Part shown: piece after piece, positions 43,423-52,101 of the stretch
How the letters are laid out: each line of letters opens with the position of its first letter
Position numbering within the stretch: position 1 is the first letter of the stretch
NCBI GenBank assembly: GCA_963751455.1
Contig: CAVVUN010000015.1
Coordinates: 1,248,001-1,312,000 of the forward strand
DNA from: Nitrospirota bacterium
GTDB taxonomy: Bacteria; Nitrospirota; UBA9217
Direction of reading: 5' to 3'
Length of the DNA stretch: 64,000 nt
Notes under the pieces: model-generated
What the model saw: the letters and a program-made list of their open reading frames with translations, nothing else
What the model was told of the DNA's origin: nothing
The model's database searches: none
Position numbers and translations under genes: made by a program

Positions 43423-43572
43423 ATGCAGCTTCCGAAAGAAATCTCCGAACTGATCGAACGCTTTGACCGGAACATCGAAGACTACAAGTCCGGAAAGTAC
43501 AATGAGATGCGGCTCCGGCAGGAATTTCTCAATCCGTTCTTCGAAACGCTCGGTTGGGACATGAACAACCGG
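43423..43572 (+). pseudogene. N-terminal fragment of a type IIG/HsdR_N-like restriction-modification gene, cut by the RAYT element
   Basis: LIERFDRNIEDYKSGKYNEMRLRQEFLNPFFETLGWDMNN; similarity ends at the IR at 43573. Confidence 0.7.
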
Positions 43573-44515
43573 GAACCTTTAGGGTCAAGTCTTTTTCGTT
43601 GCATTTCATTCTGATTTCTGCTACAGTCGCCCCATGGCCCGACCTCTAAGAATAGAATATGCCGGTGCGGTCTATCACGTAACATCCCGTGGCAACGAGA
43701 AAAAGCCCGTATTCAAAAACGACCAGGACCGCGAAAACTTTCTGAACACGGTCCAGCACGTCAACAAGCGGTACAATTGGATCTGTCATGCGTATTGCCT
43801 CATGACAAATCATTACCACCTTCTTATCGAGACCCCGGAAGGCAATCTTTCTCTCGGTATGCGCCAATTGAACGGCGTCTATACGCAACTTTTCAACAAG
43901 TATCACGGCAGGTCCGGGCATTTATTCCAGGGCCGGTATAAGGCTATCTTGATCCAGAAAGACAGTCATCTCCTTGAGGTCTGCCGATATGTGGTTCTAA
44001 ATCCGGTAAGAGCAAGGATTGTCGAAGCGCCGGAAGACTGGAAGTGGTCCAGTTACCTTGCGACGGCGGGTAAGGCAGAACCTCATCCCTGCCTCACAAA
44101 GGACTGGGTGCTCGGTCAATTCAGCAGAAAACGAGATAAGGCGGAAAAAGAGTATCGCCAGTTCGTTCAGTGGGGTATCGGAAAGAAGACGATCTGGACG
44201 GAAGTGCGAGGCCAAGCGCTTTTAGGTGAGGACGATTTTGTAGATAAACTTACGGATTATCTCAAAAAGCACAAGGACATTCCCGAAATTCCCCGGAGTC
44301 AGCGATATTCGACTCGACCGTCGCTTGCCGTTTTGCTGCCCGACTCAGTCATGAACAATCATCGCAAACTGATGAAAAAGGTGTCTGAGGCCGTGGAAAA
44401 ATACGGTTATCATCAGAGTGAACTAGCCCGTCATGTGGCTGTCCACTACTCGACGATCAGCCGCTGGCTTCGTGAATACGAAAATGCAACGAAAAAGACT
44501 TGACCCTAAAGGTTC
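43573..44515. mobile_element. RAYT-type element 1 bounded by a perfect 34-bp inverted repeat
   Basis: gaacctttagggtcaagtctttttcgttgcattt (43573-43606) is the reverse complement of 44482-44515. Confidence 0.85.
43634..44503 (+). CDS. REP-associated tyrosine (Y1/HUH) transposase with C-terminal HTH
   Basis: YHVTSRGN, AYCLMTNHYHLL (HUH), GHLFQGRY, YVVLNPVRA, WSSY. Confidence 0.92.
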   Translation: MARPLRIEYAGAVYHVTSRGNEKKPVFKNDQDRENFLNTVQHVNKRYNWICHAYCLMTNHYHLLIETPEGNLSLGMRQLNGVYTQLFNKYHGRSGHLFQGRYKAILIQKDSHLLEVCRYVVLNPVRARIVEAPEDWKWSSYLATAGKAEPHPCLTKDWVLGQFSRKRDKAEKEYRQFVQWGIGKKTIWTEVRGQALLGEDDFVDKLTDYLKKHKDIPEIPRSQRYSTRPSLAVLLPDSVMNNHRKLMKKVSEAVEKYGYHQSELARHVAVHYSTISRWLREYENATKKT

Positions 44516-44553
44516 TCTTGACCCTAAAGGTTCTCTAAAGGTTCTAAAGGTTT

Positions 44554-44648
44554 TCACAACGAGCGATTGCCGACCACCTGGGTGTGCACTTCACGTACGT
44601 GAGTAGAATTTTACGGAATCGAAGGGAAAGGTAAACAGTATAGACCTG
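44554..44648 (+). pseudogene. orphan 3' end (HTH plus partial IR) of a third RAYT-type transposase
   Basis: SQRAIADHLGVHFTYVSRILRNRRER* then acagtatagacctg, matching the end of the 46531-47388 gene. Confidence 0.75.
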
Positions 44649-45183
44649 TATAACCCTGTGAAGTTCCAAGACCATCGGCGGGGGACCGCACACGGATTTC
44701 GCCGAACACCCGTCACCCATTGCGCAGCCCCCCACTCCTGGTCTATTTACTATAACAAGGATTTCCAATTCATGAATAAAGTGTTTATGAGCTGTGCATT
44801 TGCAATGCGAGCCGCGGGAGCCATGCGACGGTCTTGCCTTTTCTCAAGAGCATTGCCGGCTGCATTCCTGTTGTCGCACGTCCGAGCACGCTGAAATTCT
44901 CCGGCCCCCAATTATATCTGGGAATGTAGAACGGATTTTCCGTATCGGCTTGCAGACCGGAAAGACCATTGGCGAGCAATGAATCGGTGTTGACTTCGAA
45001 TTTCCAGATGGGATAGGATGTTGCGGTACTCGTCGGCAGAGTACTGAGGTTTAACAGTGCCTGGAGCGCCCTAAAATCATAATCCTGATTCCCTTGGACG
45101 GCTGAGGGTCAAATCTCATTTGTCAACAATGAGAGCCGGCCGATCAGCCCTGAGTTAGAGGCTTTTGGGGTCGTTTTTTTACA

Positions 45184-45297
45184 GGCTGTTGCCTGTGCTT
45201 CGACAGGTTCAGCGTGAACGGAAAAAGATAACGATTTCAAAGGTAATGCCGTTCGCCCTGAGTTTGTCGAAGGGTGAACGGGGTTTCGGCAACAGCC
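45184..45297. repeat. nested inverted-repeat element
   Basis: ggctgttgcc / ggcaacagcc enclosing cttcgaca..gtgaacgg / ccgttcgc..tgtcgaag. Confidence 0.6.
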
Positions 45298-45448
45298 CTT
45301 GACAGTTCTAACGGAAAGATATTTATATCGGTCCTTTTTTTGGGCCCGCCGGGTCCTCGTTCTGCAACGCCCTTGTCGTAATGCAGTTGACGTGCCTGCA
45401 TAAAATGTGTAAAATATGATTATCATATAATACGCAGAGGAGGGAACA

Positions 45449-45730
45449 ATGACGAAAACGATAACCGCAACCGAGGCTGTTCGGAAGTTTTCCGAGATAC
45501 TCAATTCCATAAAATACACGGGGAATGACTATACGATCATGCGGGGAGGCAAGCCGGTTGCGACGATCCGTCCGGCGGAAACCCACGCAAAGGAATTGAC
45601 CCTGGGCGATCTGCCGGGATTGGTGCGATCGCTTCCCGCGCTCGGCGATGAAGCGGAACGATTCAAAAAAGACATCAGGGAAGCCCGTAAGCATCAGCCC
45701 CATTTGCCGGAGAAAGACAAATGGGCGTAA
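45449..45730 (+). CDS. Phd/YefM-family antitoxin
   Basis: ITATEAVRKFSEILN...IMRGGKPVATIRP; overlaps the toxin gene. Confidence 0.85.
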   Translation: MTKTITATEAVRKFSEILNSIKYTGNDYTIMRGGKPVATIRPAETHAKELTLGDLPGLVRSLPALGDEAERFKKDIREARKHQPHLPEKDKWA

Positions 45731-46128
45731 TATTCGACACGAGCGTCCTGATCTCCCTTGAGCGCGGTTCGCACGGACTTGAGAGGCTCGCCTCAGGCAG
45801 GGAAAACGAGGCCTTCGGTATCAGCGTTGTCGCTGTTTCCGAGCTCTTGCATGGCGTTCATCGTGCGGACTCAGAGAAAAGGCGCCTCACGAGGGGAGCG
45901 TTCGTCGAAAAGATTATACAGACCTTCCCGCTCTATTCGTTTGACTTGAACGCAGCGAGAATCTATGCAAAACTTTGGGCCAATCTCGCAAAAAAGGGAG
46001 TGACCATAGGCGCTCACGACCTTATGATCGCTTCAACGGCAATTGCCCTCGGTTTCTCCGTGGTTACTACTGATGTGCGCGACTATGGCAAGGTTAAGGA
46101 AGTGACTGTCGAAAAGTTCCTCGTATGA
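45721..46128 (+). CDS. VapC PIN-domain toxin
   Basis: IFDTSVLI, SELLHG, GAHDLMIASTA, VVTTDVRDY. Confidence 0.9.
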   Translation: MGVIFDTSVLISLERGSHGLERLASGRENEAFGISVVAVSELLHGVHRADSEKRRLTRGAFVEKIIQTFPLYSFDLNAARIYAKLWANLAKKGVTIGAHDLMIASTAIALGFSVVTTDVRDYGKVKEVTVEKFLV

Positions 46129-46264
46129 TTAGCCTCGGTCGTTCTCAGAGGAGAACTTTCGGGGCCAGGTTTTTAAATATCAGTTGGTAGATTTGAAACC
46201 CGCCCCGTTTTTTGACCGGACCCCCACCCGTCCTCGGATATCTCCTGATCTGAAAGGAAGCCCC

Positions 46265-46360
46265 ATGAAGAGGACCCAATTATATATAGAAGATGATGTT
46301 CTTAAAGTGCTCCGGCGAGTAAGCAAGGAAAAGGCGGTTTCAATATCCGCTCTGAAATAG
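46265..46360 (+). pseudogene. truncated CopG/RHH antitoxin
   Basis: MKRTQLYIEDDVLKVLRRVSKEKAVSISALK* with AAGGA RBS. Confidence 0.55.
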
Positions 46361-46388
46361 CGACAATATCTTTGCTTTTACCATTCGT

Positions 46389-46464
46389 CCAAAGTTTCTT
46401 TTTCATAATAAAGCCCGACGCCCTATCCAGCCCGCCCCTTCGCTGTTTTTGATTGAAACTTAAT
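46389..46464 (+). repeat. 76-bp exact direct repeat, copy 1
   Basis: identical to 49573-49648. Confidence 0.9.
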
Positions 46465-46467
46465 TTG

Positions 46468-47415
46468 AACTTCTTAGGGTCAGGTCCATACTGTTGGACT
46501 TTTGTTTAAACTTCTGTTAAACTCCCCTTTATGGCTCGTCCATTACGCATAGAATACTCCGGTGCAGTTTATCACATCACCAACCGGGGCAACGATAAAA
46601 AAGCCGTATTCAAAGATGACCAGGACCGAGAGATATTTCTCAAAATCCTTGCCTTCGTCAACAAACGCTACCACTGGCTTTGTCACGCCTACTGTCTCAT
46701 GGACAATCATTACCACCTCATGATAGAAACGCCGGATGGAAACCTTTCCCTCGGCATGAGGCAGCTAAACGGTGTTTATACTCAGGCGCGGAACAAACGC
46801 CACAACAAGACCGGGCACCTTTTCCAGGGCAGGTACAAGGCCATCCTTATTCAAAAGGACACTCATCTTCTTGAAGTCTGCCGCTATGTGGTCCTTAATC
46901 CGGTCCGCGCTGGGATGGTCGAAAAGCCCGAAGACTGGAAATGGTCCAGCTACCGGGCCACAGGTGGGAAGGAAACAGCTCATCCCTGTCTCACAACGGA
47001 CTGGATACTAGGACAGTTCAGCCGAACGAGGGCCAAGGCAGAGAAAGAATATCGCCAATTTGTGAAATGGGGGATCGGCAAGGAAACCATCTGGAAGGAG
47101 GTCAAGGGCCAAGCCCTTCTCGGCGAAGATGACTTTGTTGACAGCCTTGCCGATCATCTCGGAAGGCATAAAGATATTCCCGAGATCCCAAAGAGCCAGC
47201 GCTACGCCAACAGGCCGGCACTTGAAAAAATATTCACTCAGAGTATACTGGACAACAAACTTACGCGGGACAGAAAAATTGCCGAGGCTGTCGAGAAGTA
47301 CGGATACACTCAGCGTTCAATTGCTGATCACCTCAGCGTGCACTCCACATACGTGAGCAGAATTCTGTGCGGACACTACAAAAGGTAAACAGTATGGACC
47401 TGACCCTAAGAAGTT
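46468..47415. mobile_element. RAYT-type element 2 bounded by a perfect 28-bp inverted repeat
   Basis: aacttcttagggtcaggtccatactgtt (46468-46495) is the reverse complement of 47388-47415. Confidence 0.85.
46531..47388 (+). CDS. REP-associated tyrosine (Y1/HUH) transposase with C-terminal HTH
   Basis: paralog of 43634-44503; YHITNRGN, MDNHYHLM, YVVLNPVRA. Confidence 0.92.
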   Translation: MARPLRIEYSGAVYHITNRGNDKKAVFKDDQDREIFLKILAFVNKRYHWLCHAYCLMDNHYHLMIETPDGNLSLGMRQLNGVYTQARNKRHNKTGHLFQGRYKAILIQKDTHLLEVCRYVVLNPVRAGMVEKPEDWKWSSYRATGGKETAHPCLTTDWILGQFSRTRAKAEKEYRQFVKWGIGKETIWKEVKGQALLGEDDFVDSLADHLGRHKDIPEIPKSQRYANRPALEKIFTQSILDNKLTRDRKIAEAVEKYGYTQRSIADHLSVHSTYVSRILCGHYKR

Positions 47416-47427
47416 TTCTGAGAAGTT

Positions 47428-47717
47428 TTGGTTGCCGAACACGGGGATGCGCTCCTCTGTGTTCGCTACAGATACGACGAGCAGAGCCGCACACGCTAAA
47501 AACCATAGAACTGATCATCGAATGAAAACCCTGGATGCCGACCTCACGCCGTTTCAACGATAATACACCGGTGCCTGTGCGAATTGAATATAGTGATAAG
47601 GCTTTGCGGGAAAAGGCAAAGGCGGCGCATGGAAAATGGGATCCGAAGACACGTGCATGGTATATTCAGTTCGGAAAAATCAAAGGAACCGAATTGGAAA
47701 AGTTTATAATATCATAA
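47428..47717 (+). pseudogene. degraded hypothetical gene (5'-truncated, one frameshift, one internal stop)
   Basis: LVAEHGDALLCVRYRYDEQSRTR / KTIELIIE*KPW...KAAHGKWDPKTRAWYI. Confidence 0.55.
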
Positions 47718-47849
47718 ACCTGAGGCAACGAGAAAGCTTATGATACTATAAACAGCCAAAGCTTAGAATAGCATAAACCGGCTTATTCTATCATAAACTT
47801 GTTTGTCATATCATAAGCCGGTTTCCGAATAGAGATTAACTGGTTAACC
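47713..47849 (+). other. attI-like region
   Basis: CATAA(A/G)C at 20-bp spacing (47772, 47792, 47812), 11-bp IR aaccggcttat/ataagccggtt, ending in GTTAACC core. Confidence 0.45.
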
Positions 47850-49458: not shown

Positions 49459-49572
49459 GTTCGTCATCAGATCGACATTGTATTTGAAATAAACCTTCGC
49501 TTCGATACGAATGTCAGTACGCTTGTCGTGGACCGCAAATCGTGGGAAAGCCGCCTTTTTTCAGTGCTTCCG

Positions 49573-49648
49573 CCAAAGTTTCTTTTTCATAATAAAGCCC
49601 GACGCCCTATCCAGCCCGCCCCTTCGCTGTTTTTGATTGAAACTTAAT
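49573..49648 (+). repeat. 76-bp exact direct repeat, copy 2
   Basis: identical to 46389-46464. Confidence 0.9.
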
Positions 49649-49729: not shown

Positions 49730-50149
49730 ATGAGCAACCTGGACGTTCGTTGGAAACAACGCTTCAATCATTATCAAAAAGCGCTCCGGCAGCTTGCAGG
49801 ATCCGTGGAACTGGCGAGGCAGCTTCCCTTGTCAGAGCTTGAGAAACTAGGTCTCATTAAGGCCTTTGAATTCACGCATGAGCTGGCATGGAATGTGATG
49901 AAGGATTATTTTGAATACCAGGGCACGACCTCAATCATGGGTTCCCGCGACGCATCACGTGAAGCATTTCAAAAAGGACTTGTTGCTGACGGTGAAGGGT
50001 GGATGGAGATGCTCCAGAGCAGGAACCAGACGTCGCATACCTATAACCAAAATGTGGCAGACGAAATTGCCGGGAAAGTGACGACGCTGTATTGCAAGCT
50101 GTTCCTTGAGTTGGAAAAAAGTCTTTTGAAGATGAAAGACAGCGAGTGA
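49730..50149 (+). CDS. HEPN / HI0074-family nucleotidyltransferase substrate-binding protein
   Basis: RWKQRF, FEFTHELAW, RNQTSHTY (Rx4H). Confidence 0.88.
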   Translation: MSNLDVRWKQRFNHYQKALRQLAGSVELARQLPLSELEKLGLIKAFEFTHELAWNVMKDYFEYQGTTSIMGSRDASREAFQKGLVADGEGWMEMLQSRNQTSHTYNQNVADEIAGKVTTLYCKLFLELEKSLLKMKDSE

Positions 50150-50493
50150 CGGTGCTGCCGATGAAATATGGCCTGAATGACAATATAATCGTAAAGATCA
50201 ACTCAATCTTTTCAAGATGGCCCGGTGTCGAGCAGGTCATTCTGTACGGATCACGCGCCAAGGGAAATTATCGTGACGGCTCGGACATAGACCTTACGAT
50301 AGTCGGTGAAACTGTAACGCAATCGGACATGCTGAAGATTGCAAACGAACTCGATGATTTGCTGTTGCCGTATAAAATCGATCTGTCACTGATGCGTCAA
50401 ATTGAGGATAAAGCGGTCATTGAGCACATAAAGCGGGTTGGTGTGGTTCTTTATGAAAGGGCATCGTATGCGCCATCGAGGACTGTTGAATGA
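50146..50493 (+). CDS. minimal nucleotidyltransferase (MNT antitoxin)
   Basis: LYGSRAKGNYRDGSDIDL, LLPYKIDL. Confidence 0.88.
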   Translation: MTVLPMKYGLNDNIIVKINSIFSRWPGVEQVILYGSRAKGNYRDGSDIDLTIVGETVTQSDMLKIANELDDLLLPYKIDLSLMRQIEDKAVIEHIKRVGVVLYERASYAPSRTVE

Positions 50494-50583: not shown

Positions 50584-52101
50584 CCTTAACGTTGCATAAA
50601 AAATCGCTATGCGGCCCGTTGCAATCGGTCGAGATAATGCAACAACCCCTTTTTGACTCGTGGATTGGCGTTCATTGTCAGAGTTAGCTTGCCGCCGGGC
50701 TGTGTCAGGCGGCCGGCACGCTGTATAAGTGTTCTTCGCAGGGTATTGGGCTCCGTGAACTCCCAAAGAGCGGCCCGTTTTTCGGTGGTGCCCCGGTCGG
50801 GTTCATGCGCGACCATGTGAAGTTCCTTCAGGAGATTGTGCGAGATGATCGCCGACATCATGTATAGCTGATTTCCGTGCAATCTTCTCACAGCCACGTA
50901 ATCCATATTGCACTGGGACTTTAGCTCTCCAAGGATGTTTTCCTGAGAACCGCGGCCCTGATGGAAGTTCAGGACTTTCTTCACCGTCGTTGTTTTGTTT
51001 GTAACGATCACCTTGAAGTCAAACCCGTATTCGTGCGGCGTGAACATATCAAGCTGCACCGGCTCTTTTGACTGCTTTTTGGCTTTTTGACGAATAAAAA
51101 GAAAGCGGAACCGGCTGTCCCAGCTTTTCGGCTTCCAGGGTGTGTCGAGATAGGAAACAACGGAATCGTAACGCCTCCAGCGTTTTTTGGCTTCGATCAT
51201 GTGTTTGAGTTCGGAGAACCGCTCAAAGGGGACCGAGATGGTGAACTCAATTCCGTCGCGCTCCAGCGCGCCGACGATTTCATCGCTGAAGAAAGCGCTG
51301 TCCATGCGCACTTCGATGACGATATCCGAACAGGTTGCACGCACCTGTTCGATGCACGCAAGGATGAACGCCCGGGCGCCGTTGGAATCATGTACGTTAC
51401 CCGAACGGGGCAGGACGTCAAGGACCATGCCCAACTGAGCGATCATGCAGAAAAGCGGATAATAGCTTCTCTGCCCTTTTTTCTTTTTGTTGAAGCCTAC
51501 GGCGGCACCCTCAGCCCATCGGGAGGTCGAGAGCACAGAGCCGTCGAAATCAAGCGTCACGCGACGAAGCTTCAAACCCTGTATGCGGGAGAGCGACATT
51601 TCCCGGCAGAACCGACGAAGATTCAAAATGTCCTTTGCGTCGACCGTCATCAATGCCCGGCTGATCGTGGAAACGTCCGGCATTTTTCGGAGGCCCAGAA
51701 GACGAAGCGCCATAAGGTCGTCCTGATAGTATTCGATGTCGCGGAGTTTCCGATAACCCAGCATCAGATGCACGATCAGCACGAGCGTAATGACGTGATT
51801 GCCGAAGATGGCGCTCGACGGTAGATGATCAAAGCAGCTTTTCAAGCGGGCTTTCAGATTCAGCTTCGTGAAGAATGCCTGAATGATAGCAAGGCCCGCG
51901 TAGGAAGTGAGCTGTTGATCCTCGAACTTCAGTTCCGGTATTTTGTGAACGCGGCTTAGAACCTGTGCTTTACTGGACTTCACTTTCAGTGGCCTCCTGC
52001 TTGAGTGAAATAATGATATCGCAGGAGCACTATATCCAATAATGAAGCCTGTTTCCAGAGGTTTCTGCATATTTTCAAGAAATGTTTATGCAACTACAAG
52101 G
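50584..52101 (-). mobile_element. IS1380-family insertion sequence with 4-bp TTTA target duplication
   Basis: IRs ccttaacgttgcataaa / tttatgcaactacaagg (14/17); TTTA at 50580-50583 and 52102-52105. Confidence 0.88.
50607..51983 (-). CDS. IS1380-family DDE transposase
   Basis: LTSYAGL, TLDFDGS, SYYPL, RSGN, VRMDSAF, RGSQEN.LGELK; GTG start with GGAGG RBS. Confidence 0.88.
   Translation of the reverse strand: MKSSKAQVLSRVHKIPELKFEDQQLTSYAGLAIIQAFFTKLNLKARLKSCFDHLPSSAIFGNHVITLVLIVHLMLGYRKLRDIEYYQDDLMALRLLGLRKMPDVSTISRALMTVDAKDILNLRRFCREMSLSRIQGLKLRRVTLDFDGSVLSTSRWAEGAAVGFNKKKKGQRSYYPLFCMIAQLGMVLDVLPRSGNVHDSNGARAFILACIEQVRATCSDIVIEVRMDSAFFSDEIVGALERDGIEFTISVPFERFSELKHMIEAKKRWRRYDSVVSYLDTPWKPKSWDSRFRFLFIRQKAKKQSKEPVQLDMFTPHEYGFDFKVIVTNKTTTVKKVLNFHQGRGSQENILGELKSQCNMDYVAVRRLHGNQLYMMSAIISHNLLKELHMVAHEPDRGTTEKRAALWEFTEPNTLRRTLIQRAGRLTQPGGKLTLTMNANPRVKKGLLHYLDRLQRAA

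Follow-up and report, generated by a model that had tools for sequence, protein, structure and literature searches.

Terminal inverted repeats of two TIRtron elements in a Nitrospirota genome track a helix-turn-helix residue of their HUH transposases

Background

The genome of a Nitrospirota bacterium (assembly GCA_963751455.1, here G000; 5.7 Mb in 15 contigs) contains two genes for HUH (Y1) tyrosine transposases, each enclosed by an inverted repeat that takes in both promoter sequence and the end of the gene. Both lie in the 64,000-nucleotide stretch analysed here (contig CAVVUN010000015.1, positions 1,248,001 to 1,312,000; hereafter the window, with coordinates counted from its first nucleotide), element 1 from 43573 and element 2 from 46465. 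This arrangement raises the questions of how such an enzyme would recognize its ends and whether the unit moves. The analysis described below indicated that both elements belong to the TIRYT/TIRtron family, that one residue of the helix-turn-helix (HTH) changes together with the repeat bases it likely reads, and that the elements probably move by nicking a short distance outside a conserved GGGTCA core.

RAYT-like genes flanked by terminal inverted repeats (TIRs) were named TIRYT or TIRtron by Di Nocera, De Gregorio and Rocco in 2013 (PMC3733652), and were later equated with subclass 2.1 of the TnpA-Y1 proteins (Quentin 2018, PMC6006769), the second-largest Y1 HUH group, found in 14.9% of the species sampled there. 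It has been proposed in the literature that the TIRYT enzyme binds and cleaves its own TIR. Searches for 'TIRYT' and 'TIRtron' returned only these two papers as relevant and no paper on mechanism, and the available text of Corneloup 2021 (PMC8266576) makes no mention of TIR, group 1 or 2.1. Neither an HTH-base rule nor mobility of the unit at the level of copies was found in the literature searched; subscription papers, ISfinder and supplements may bear on novelty.

Results

Two elements with perfect terminal inverted repeats

Positions in the repeats are numbered from the first G of the GGGTCA core, which is 0, with negative numbers outside. The left arm of element 1 (43573-43606) pairs with its right arm over 34 nt at 100% complementarity. 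It consists of a 9-nt tip outside the core (43573-43581, plus strand), which is not target DNA and is common to the other copies in the genome, and of the TIR itself (43582-43606, plus strand), with the core at 43582 and TT at positions 10-11 (43592-43593, plus strand). The -35 box TTGCAT (43599-43604, plus strand) lies within the arm, 17 nt before the predicted -10 box TACAGT of a leaderless promoter (43622-43627, plus strand), and the ATG follows 6 nt downstream. The transposase (43634-44503, plus strand, 289 aa) has the HUH residues N59-H60-Y61-H62, Y119 within YVVLNP, a WSSY motif and a C-terminal HTH with helices at residues 261-268 and 272-288. Its recognition helix reads HYSTISRW, and the codon for Tyr272 is at 44447-44449. 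The right repeat (44482-44515, minus strand) takes in the last codons and the TGA stop, has the first G of its core at 44506, and ends in a 9-nt tip (44507-44515, minus strand).

Element 2 has the same layout. Its left arm (46468-46505) matches its right arm (47378-47415) over 38 nt at 92%, including a perfect stretch of 28 nt (46468-46495 and 47388-47415); by simple arithmetic, the chance of a perfect 28-mer pair in 64 kb is about 3e-8. The left repeat extends to 46501 (plus strand), with its core at 46477 and CA at positions 10-11. The -35 box TGGACT (46495-46500, plus strand) is 17 nt before the predicted -10 box TAAACT (46518-46523, plus strand), from which the ATG is 7 nt downstream. The transposase (46531-47388, plus strand, 285 aa) is 72% identical to that of element 1, with the recognition helix HSTYVSRI and Ser272 encoded at 47344-47346. 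The right end (47382-47429, minus strand) comprises the right repeat, with the first G of its core at 47406, the tip at 47407-47417 and a single imperfect re-copy of the tip (47418-47429, minus strand). The lengths of the perfect repeats, the promoter motifs with their ATG spacing and the two helices are all as the original prediction had described them. Its statement that the arms reach the -35 box and overlap the stop codon needs qualifying for element 2, whose perfect arm goes no farther than the first base of the -35 box and, on the right, shares a single base with the TAA stop, its last.

Both proteins matched Pfam Y1_Tnp and scored above the cut-off for NCBIfam NF047646 (REP_Tyr_transpos). 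The HTH of element 1 matched HTH_28 at 25.6 bits (cut-off 25); that of element 2 had no Pfam HTH match, yet it aligned over the same helices. NHYH and Y119 were invariant across 29 aligned proteins, and the subclass 2.1 motifs NH[YF]H, FQ, Y[IV]xLNP and SS, as given in Table 1 of Quentin 2018, were all present in the window proteins. An AlphaFold model of the element protein (mean pLDDT 88.5) placed residue 272 at the beginning of the second HTH helix, and its top fold match was TnpA-REP of E. coli (4er8, E 1.3e-07). The nearest database relatives were from Nitrospirota, and no relative was found in viral contigs with the query used. The two elements are therefore new members of a catalogued family, TIRYT/TIRtron or TnpA-Y1 subclass 2.1.2. 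The original prediction had proposed a distinct class, a claim that fails because the arrangement was already catalogued.

As predicted, the ends are not of the IS200/IS605 type. No stable hairpin was found in six end fragments, for which folding z-scores ranged from -1.56 to +1.76; this lack of folding also bears on flanking GTAG-tagged REP hairpins, for which no dedicated search was made. The cores of the window elements agreed with the GGGGWSAS motif at six of eight positions (element 1) and seven of eight (element 2). Of the 184 intact relatives, 148 had a core at each end, and among distant relatives 80 of the 94 left ends had a G at -1.

A residue of the predicted recognition helix tracks the repeat sequence

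Distinct intact relatives numbered 184 (170 of them at <95% identity); a later-fetched set added 63 non-redundant relatives, 62 of which had a clean core. Covariation between protein columns and repeat positions was scored as mutual information with average-product correction. Residue 272 and repeat position 11 formed the top pair, both when the two arms were used (136 elements, z 13.9) and when the left repeat alone was used (203 elements, z 14.7 with the next pair at 7.1, of 5,130 pairs). The left repeat is about 870 bp away from the codon for residue 272. In the 203 elements, Phe was accompanied by TA at bases 10-11 in 29 of 29 cases, Tyr by TT in 113 of 118, Leu by TC in 18 of 19, Arg by TC in 3 of 3, Ser by CA in 4 of 4 and Asp by CT in 3 of 4. 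At position 11 alone, T goes with Tyr, A with Phe, and C with Leu or Arg. Three of these states occur within the window: Tyr with TT in element 1, Ser with CA in element 2, and Phe with TA in a relic described below. Residue 272 is the first of the predicted recognition helix, a position that serves as a specificity residue in repressors of the LacI type.

The rule derived from the first set called 91 of 103 held-out ends from the 62 later-fetched elements, compared with 72 if TT were always guessed, and the Phe-TA pairing held at all 16 held-out ends concerned, in varied helix backgrounds. Right ends obeyed the same rule. Shared ancestry was examined with 101 disjoint tree pairs: residue 272 changed in 9 of the 12 pairs in which bases 10-11 changed, compared with 12-13 of the other 89. 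On two trees built without the helix, residue 272 ranked first of 283 columns (p 2e-5 and 3e-5, or about 0.006-0.009 corrected for the 283 columns). One relative with a frameshifted HTH (L206) was left out of the tree tests. A tree-pair test of all columns by all positions was not used, as it was dominated by the fast-changing positions 17-21 and by branch length. Across these relatives, residue 272 and repeat bases 10-11 were thus found to change together at both ends, which bears out the predicted covariation of HTH and repeat. Since one helix residue tracks one repeat base, the enzyme likely recognizes its own ends as double-stranded DNA.

Conservation of the repeats and of the left-end promoter

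Left and right arms were more alike than background from -1 to about position 24. The perfect match between them had a median of 17 nt and reached at least 28 bp in 3 of 128 elements, so the arms of the window elements are unusually perfect. Agreement at positions 11-13 was 0.83-0.93 between an element's own arms, 0.74-0.90 between nearest relatives and 0.31-0.50 between random pairs. The nearest relatives thus match almost as well as the element's own arms, and five near-full copies of element 1 share its repeat; judged by these comparisons, the repeat is specific to a family and not, as had been claimed, private to each element.

It had also been suggested that the ends are homogenized by copying. 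This does not hold as a rule for the class, given the median of 17 nt, the rarity of long perfect arms and the presence of changes in one arm only in two of the five element-1 copies. A weak version stands: among 61 close relatives, 6 had outer tips that agreed between left and right at no fewer than 8 of their 9 bases, compared with a rate of 2.4% for cross pairs (reached in none of 2,000 permutations), and none of 94 more distant elements had matched tips. Because such perfection is atypical, homogenization by copying would be at most occasional. At the ends of two relatives (L029 and L062), the repeat itself is doubled as a palindrome.

The leaderless promoter fared better. A -10 motif of the form TAnnnT was present behind 63 of 65 left ends and 5 of 65 right ends, and a Shine-Dalgarno-like motif was present at 0 of 65 left ends, which supports a predicted leaderless promoter conserved at left ends. 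A generic sigma-70 scan listed neither window promoter because the hexamers are weak; support for the promoters comes from conservation. Among public sequencing runs, none contained half of the stretch, and no RNA run was listed with it.

Head-to-tail re-copies of the ends start at a fixed offset

Outside the right arm of both elements are head-to-tail re-copies of the end, here called stutters, which the original prediction had not mentioned. Element 1 has an array of three truncated right-end re-copies (44516-44554, minus strand). When stutters were defined as perfect tandem duplications of at least 7 nt whose second copy starts between -14 and -6, they were found at 92 of 369 ends compared with 10 of 2,995 random anchors, with starts peaking at -9/-10; an earlier count had given 46 of 141 ends compared with 2%. 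Among the starts listed, 65 fell in the bin from -12 to -9, and very short units dominated. The units ended most often at about 0 and +5 (23 and 21 of the 92). Stutters occurred across phyla, including in a cultured isolate (L073), and at solo ends as well. Two left ends of another genome, G355, have long, near-perfect arrays of tip units (L333 and L339; at least 7 units of 16 nt and about 11 of 10 nt, respectively).

Some re-copies were much longer. In this genome, units of 370 and about 890 nt began at the same offset and from either end; elsewhere, units of 255-771 nt were found in L045, L167, L248, L260 and L280, and one of about 420 nt in sequencing run X1. The units had diverged in some cases (96.7-98.5% identity) and were 100% identical in L280. 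The screen behind these cases gave 14 candidates among 512 cores, of which six were checked and one was rejected; the supposed long duplications of L215/L216 were dropped as a short flank repeat.

Copies, boundaries and neighboring deletions

Element 1 is present in five near-full copies in the genome, which are 96.1-98.1% identical and have different flanks, and in two partial copies. The arms are perfect in three of the five. Other multi-copy families were found in G011 (96.7-97.8% identity) and G355 (98.5-99.3%). The copies of element 1 share their tips, so in this genome the tips are not local target DNA. The possibility that tips are target duplications was rejected, as no direct repeat >6 nt was present across three G355 copies; more generally, no target duplication was seen in three readable copies here or in the three from G355.

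An uninterrupted homolog of the flank was available for 16 of 56 ends in the genome. Homology stopped 8-12 nt outside the core in 11 of the 16 (two being self-duplications), and never closer than -8. Element 1 breaks at -9 on the left (43573): a contig of run X1 matches up to 43572 and then reads on as an intact type IIG restriction-modification gene. In the window, that gene is reduced to a stub of 50 codons (43423-43572, plus strand; PADLOC REase_MTase_IIG, E 7.9e-14) that ends exactly at the left tip. A tblastn search of the assembly did not recover the remainder of the gene and gave only a paralog of about 40% elsewhere. The left tip of element 2 (46465-46476, plus strand) was read from an uninterrupted copy of the flank at 49568-49648, with which target homology ends 12 nt before the core is reached.

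To the right of element 1, also beyond the scope of the original prediction, is the relic 3' end of a third, element-2-like copy (44555-44666, plus strand), whose 5' part has been replaced by element 1. Its helix reads VHFTYVSR, with Phe at the 272 position, its right repeat has TA at 10-11, and its core holds 4 extra bases. Both flanks could be identified in three element copies, and were non-contiguous in all three: in element 1 of the window, with the restriction-modification stub on the left and the relic on the right; at C1:555280-556158, with an integrase stub and a repeat; and at C15:1322959-1324818, an element-2 copy missing 398 bp. A search among 25 relatives of G355 gave no uninterrupted allele of the flank tried. 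Of the five joints listed for contigs of relatives, none was a change of strand or a circle junction between the two ends; this is uninformative, because contigs drop rare forms.

Several further loci in the genome involve these ends. A short IS200-like TnpA (142 aa, identified by eye) is inserted in one element-1 copy (C1:505644-506259). An element-1 remnant at C3:359715-361811 encloses a reverse-transcriptase-like open reading frame (ORF) of 455 aa, and within its inverted repeat lies GTGCG, the sequence with which group II introns typically begin. Mini-elements in which a short spacer separates two repeats, candidate non-autonomous substrates, were seen at C12:213393-213465 (73 bp) and, with a 39-nt spacer, in run X4. 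Three solo ends in the same orientation lie in a type I restriction-modification region (C15:1424332-1432652), and one of them cuts a duplicated methylase gene at -9. The left ends of two element-2 copies, at C15:787222 and C15:1324718, are interrupted at an identical base of codon 8, each by the end of a different family. Solo ends were also considered as promoters for cargo; 13 of 24 had an ORF within 450 nt, several of these were doubtful, and no pattern is claimed.

Other features of the window

A solo end of a further family lies between the two elements (45096-45130, plus strand), with the core GGGTCAAATC at 45106 and no transposase behind it. It is followed by a palindromic repeat (45180-45290), part of which (45249-45281) was matched by many contigs of other organisms with differing flanks, as a small dispersed repeat would be, and then by a Phd/YefM-like antitoxin and PIN-domain gene pair of the VapBC type (45449-46128). 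The region to the right of element 2 (47430-47830) contains a broken small gene with a DUF5710 match at 47535-47717 and, past that gene, short direct and inverted repeats (47735-47824). Farther on are a pair of genes for a nucleotidyltransferase substrate-binding protein and a Polbeta nucleotidyltransferase (49730-50493), with weak PADLOC candidate matches, and a DDE_Tnp_1_4 transposase (50607-52070); the end of apparently the same element was found at about 10 places with 99-100% identity.

Discussion

A model for movement and re-copying

In established HUH chemistry, strand cleavage yields a 5'-phosphotyrosine together with a free 3'-OH. In the reading that we consider probable, each of these TIRYT/TIRtron elements likely binds its inverted duplex ends of about 25 bp through the HTH, and likely moves by nicking 8-12 nt outside GGGTCA. 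The C-terminal HTH would supply recognition of the ends on duplex DNA. The polarity of the stutters fits a nick some 9-10 nt beyond the core on the strand that runs into the element, which would leave the tyrosine attached to the element. A host polymerase would then extend the 3'-OH of the flank and displace the tyrosine-linked end. If the displaced end were then sealed to the new 3'-OH, a stutter would result, in most cases with its stop near 0 or +5 and sometimes hundreds of bases in, while joining to a 3'-OH elsewhere would give a one-ended insertion or an adjacent deletion; with both ends acting together, the element would move. A route of nicking, extension and rejoining to tandem units was proposed for TnpA-REP (PMC3333891). 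Because the binding site adjoins the -35 box, repression of the leaderless promoter by the protein itself is probable. In this reading, selection for two identical binding sites, together with a tip that is inherited or occasionally swapped, would account for the perfect arms in the window, rather than constant homogenization.

Several observations weigh against this model. Twelve of the 103 held-out ends break the residue-272 rule; in a smaller set of elements, residue 272 was the top column on one tree but came second to E263 on the other; and a strict test of independent pairs on well-supported branches had 4, 2 and 3 pairs per contrast, none significant, the pairs going in the predicted direction or being uninformative in all but 1 of 1,200 pairings. 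At five of the 16 junctions, homology stops farther out, at -24 to -59. A clean empty site in which the two flanks adjoin was not found, and a simple two-ended insertion was never seen directly. Four G355 copies of 98.5-99.3% identity carry different, loosely similar tips, so tips are not simply carried along. The outer 30 nt of the stutter array are common to two element-1 copies, that of the window and that at C1:545561, although the flanks of the two differ; a fixed cut at -9 does not by itself account for this. The assembly is rated 5.37% contaminated, and binding, nicking and synthesis are all inferred from sequence.

The same HTH readout could be combined with a different origin of the duplications and deletions, namely one-ended insertion of a cut end into nearby sister-chromatid DNA, with a second cut by the enzyme. 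Discrete second cuts would predict the clustering of unit ends at about 0 and +5, a second cut is used in the Ton-Hoang model (PMC3333891), outer-side deletions are no less evident than duplications, and ends often lie inside or beside other ends. Discrete stops also fit a polymerase halted by bound protein, however, and nearly all duplications begin within the same few nucleotides, with very short units dominating. Local hopping of this kind appears unlikely. It appears less likely still that the repeats pair as a panhandle on a displaced single strand, in place of the IS200 hairpin, with fill-in copying keeping the ends identical. The identical tips in both window elements and the excess of matched tips among close relatives are what this would produce, but distant elements lack matched tips, the median perfect match is short, changes private to one arm persist in recent copies and solo ends also stutter; the base-specific covariation with the HTH points to reading of the duplex.

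Two further explanations were weighed. If the gene were a domesticated and largely immobile RAYT-like nuclease, the match between HTH and repeat might serve only to repress its promoter, in keeping with the -35 box inside the left repeat, with the mostly single-copy occurrence of RAYTs (Bertels 2017, PMC5581495) and with the divergence of class 2 copies within a genome (PMC6006769). Right ends mostly lack a -10 box and obey the same rule, and copies of 96-99% identity lie at unrelated sites in three genomes, which makes this explanation very improbable. Least probable of all is that the repeats bound a classical cut-and-paste unit mobilized by a DDE transposase, or that the stutters arose as artefacts of assembly. 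TIRs usually mark DDE elements, and the 100% identical units in L280 could be read as an artefact, but no target duplication was present in the cases read, and stutters occur across phyla, in a cultured isolate among others, with diverged units. The fixed offset and the HTH covariation largely refute this explanation.

A wider proposal, which we advance tentatively and with rather less than even confidence, is that TIRtrons may be active and may transpose by a third HUH route. A simple residue-to-base code in the HTH would replace the DNA hairpin and let a tyrosine enzyme of the single-strand type act on duplex inverted ends; either end could fire in a rolling-circle-like manner, its tip being joined to 3' ends without target duplication; telomere-like arrays would be built and neighboring genes pruned; and families would be insulated from one another by a single helix residue. 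The role of the subclass 2.1 HTH and the mobility of TIRtrons were left open in the two descriptions of the family (PMC6006769, PMC3733652). The present findings name a residue, a base, a likely nick window and a recently multiplied family of copies. If the model is true, an HUH transposase is steered by readout of duplex DNA, with a specificity that can be retuned, and both deletes and duplicates neighboring DNA; in this genome, element 1 has truncated a restriction-modification gene.

Comparison with known systems

The elements are most like the TIRYT/TIRtron units of PMC3733652, in which a RAYT-like tyrosine transposase gene lies between TIRs at near-constant distance, some of which overlap the end of the gene, and solo TIR families are found in the genome. 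The GGGGWSAS motif described there is common to some TIRs and not to all; the core of the window elements resembles it in part and reads AGGGTCA(A/G). The available text of that paper gives no element boundary, copy-level mobility, stutters or link between HTH and repeat. With subclass 2.1.2, which lacks REPs and corresponds to RAYT Group 1 (PMC5581495), they share the NH[YF]H, FQ, Y..LNP and SS motifs, a C-terminal HTH_23/HTH_28 domain (HTH_23/28 or DnaA_C in subclass 2.1 as a whole) and a patchy taxonomic spread. PMC6006769 left DNA reading by this HTH open, suggesting that it may not recognize a target or may have acquired a new one, whereas in the window family a helix residue tracks a repeat base. 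The mean identity of class 2 copies inside one genome was 49% in that study, compared with 96-98% for element 1; Group 1, or subclass 2.1.2, has the highest duplication rate among RAYT groups, 6.2% (PMC5581495, PMC6006769).

TnpA-REP of E. coli and its REPtron (PDB 4er8) have the same catalytic fold, and the nicking, host extension and rejoining proposed for them would add tandem units in the same way (PMC3333891). Unlike the window proteins, TnpA-REP has 165 residues and recognizes a GTAG-tagged single-stranded hairpin, and the REPtron appears not to move as a unit (PMC3333891), while the whole unit of the window family is multi-copy and its ends do not fold. IS200/IS605 elements such as IS608 and ISDra2 share the Y1 HUH core and the lack of target duplication. 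They differ in having subterminal hairpins and no TIRs, in acting on one strand only, and in a short, core-only TnpA with a Y---Q motif, compared with YVVLNP and 285-289 aa in the window elements. The rolling-circle elements IS91/ISCR encode another kind of transposase, of larger size, and their ori and ter ends are unlike each other. The nick-and-displace step and the one-ended events inferred here resemble theirs, but the ends of the window elements are equivalent inverted copies of each other, and long re-copies begin at left and right ends alike.

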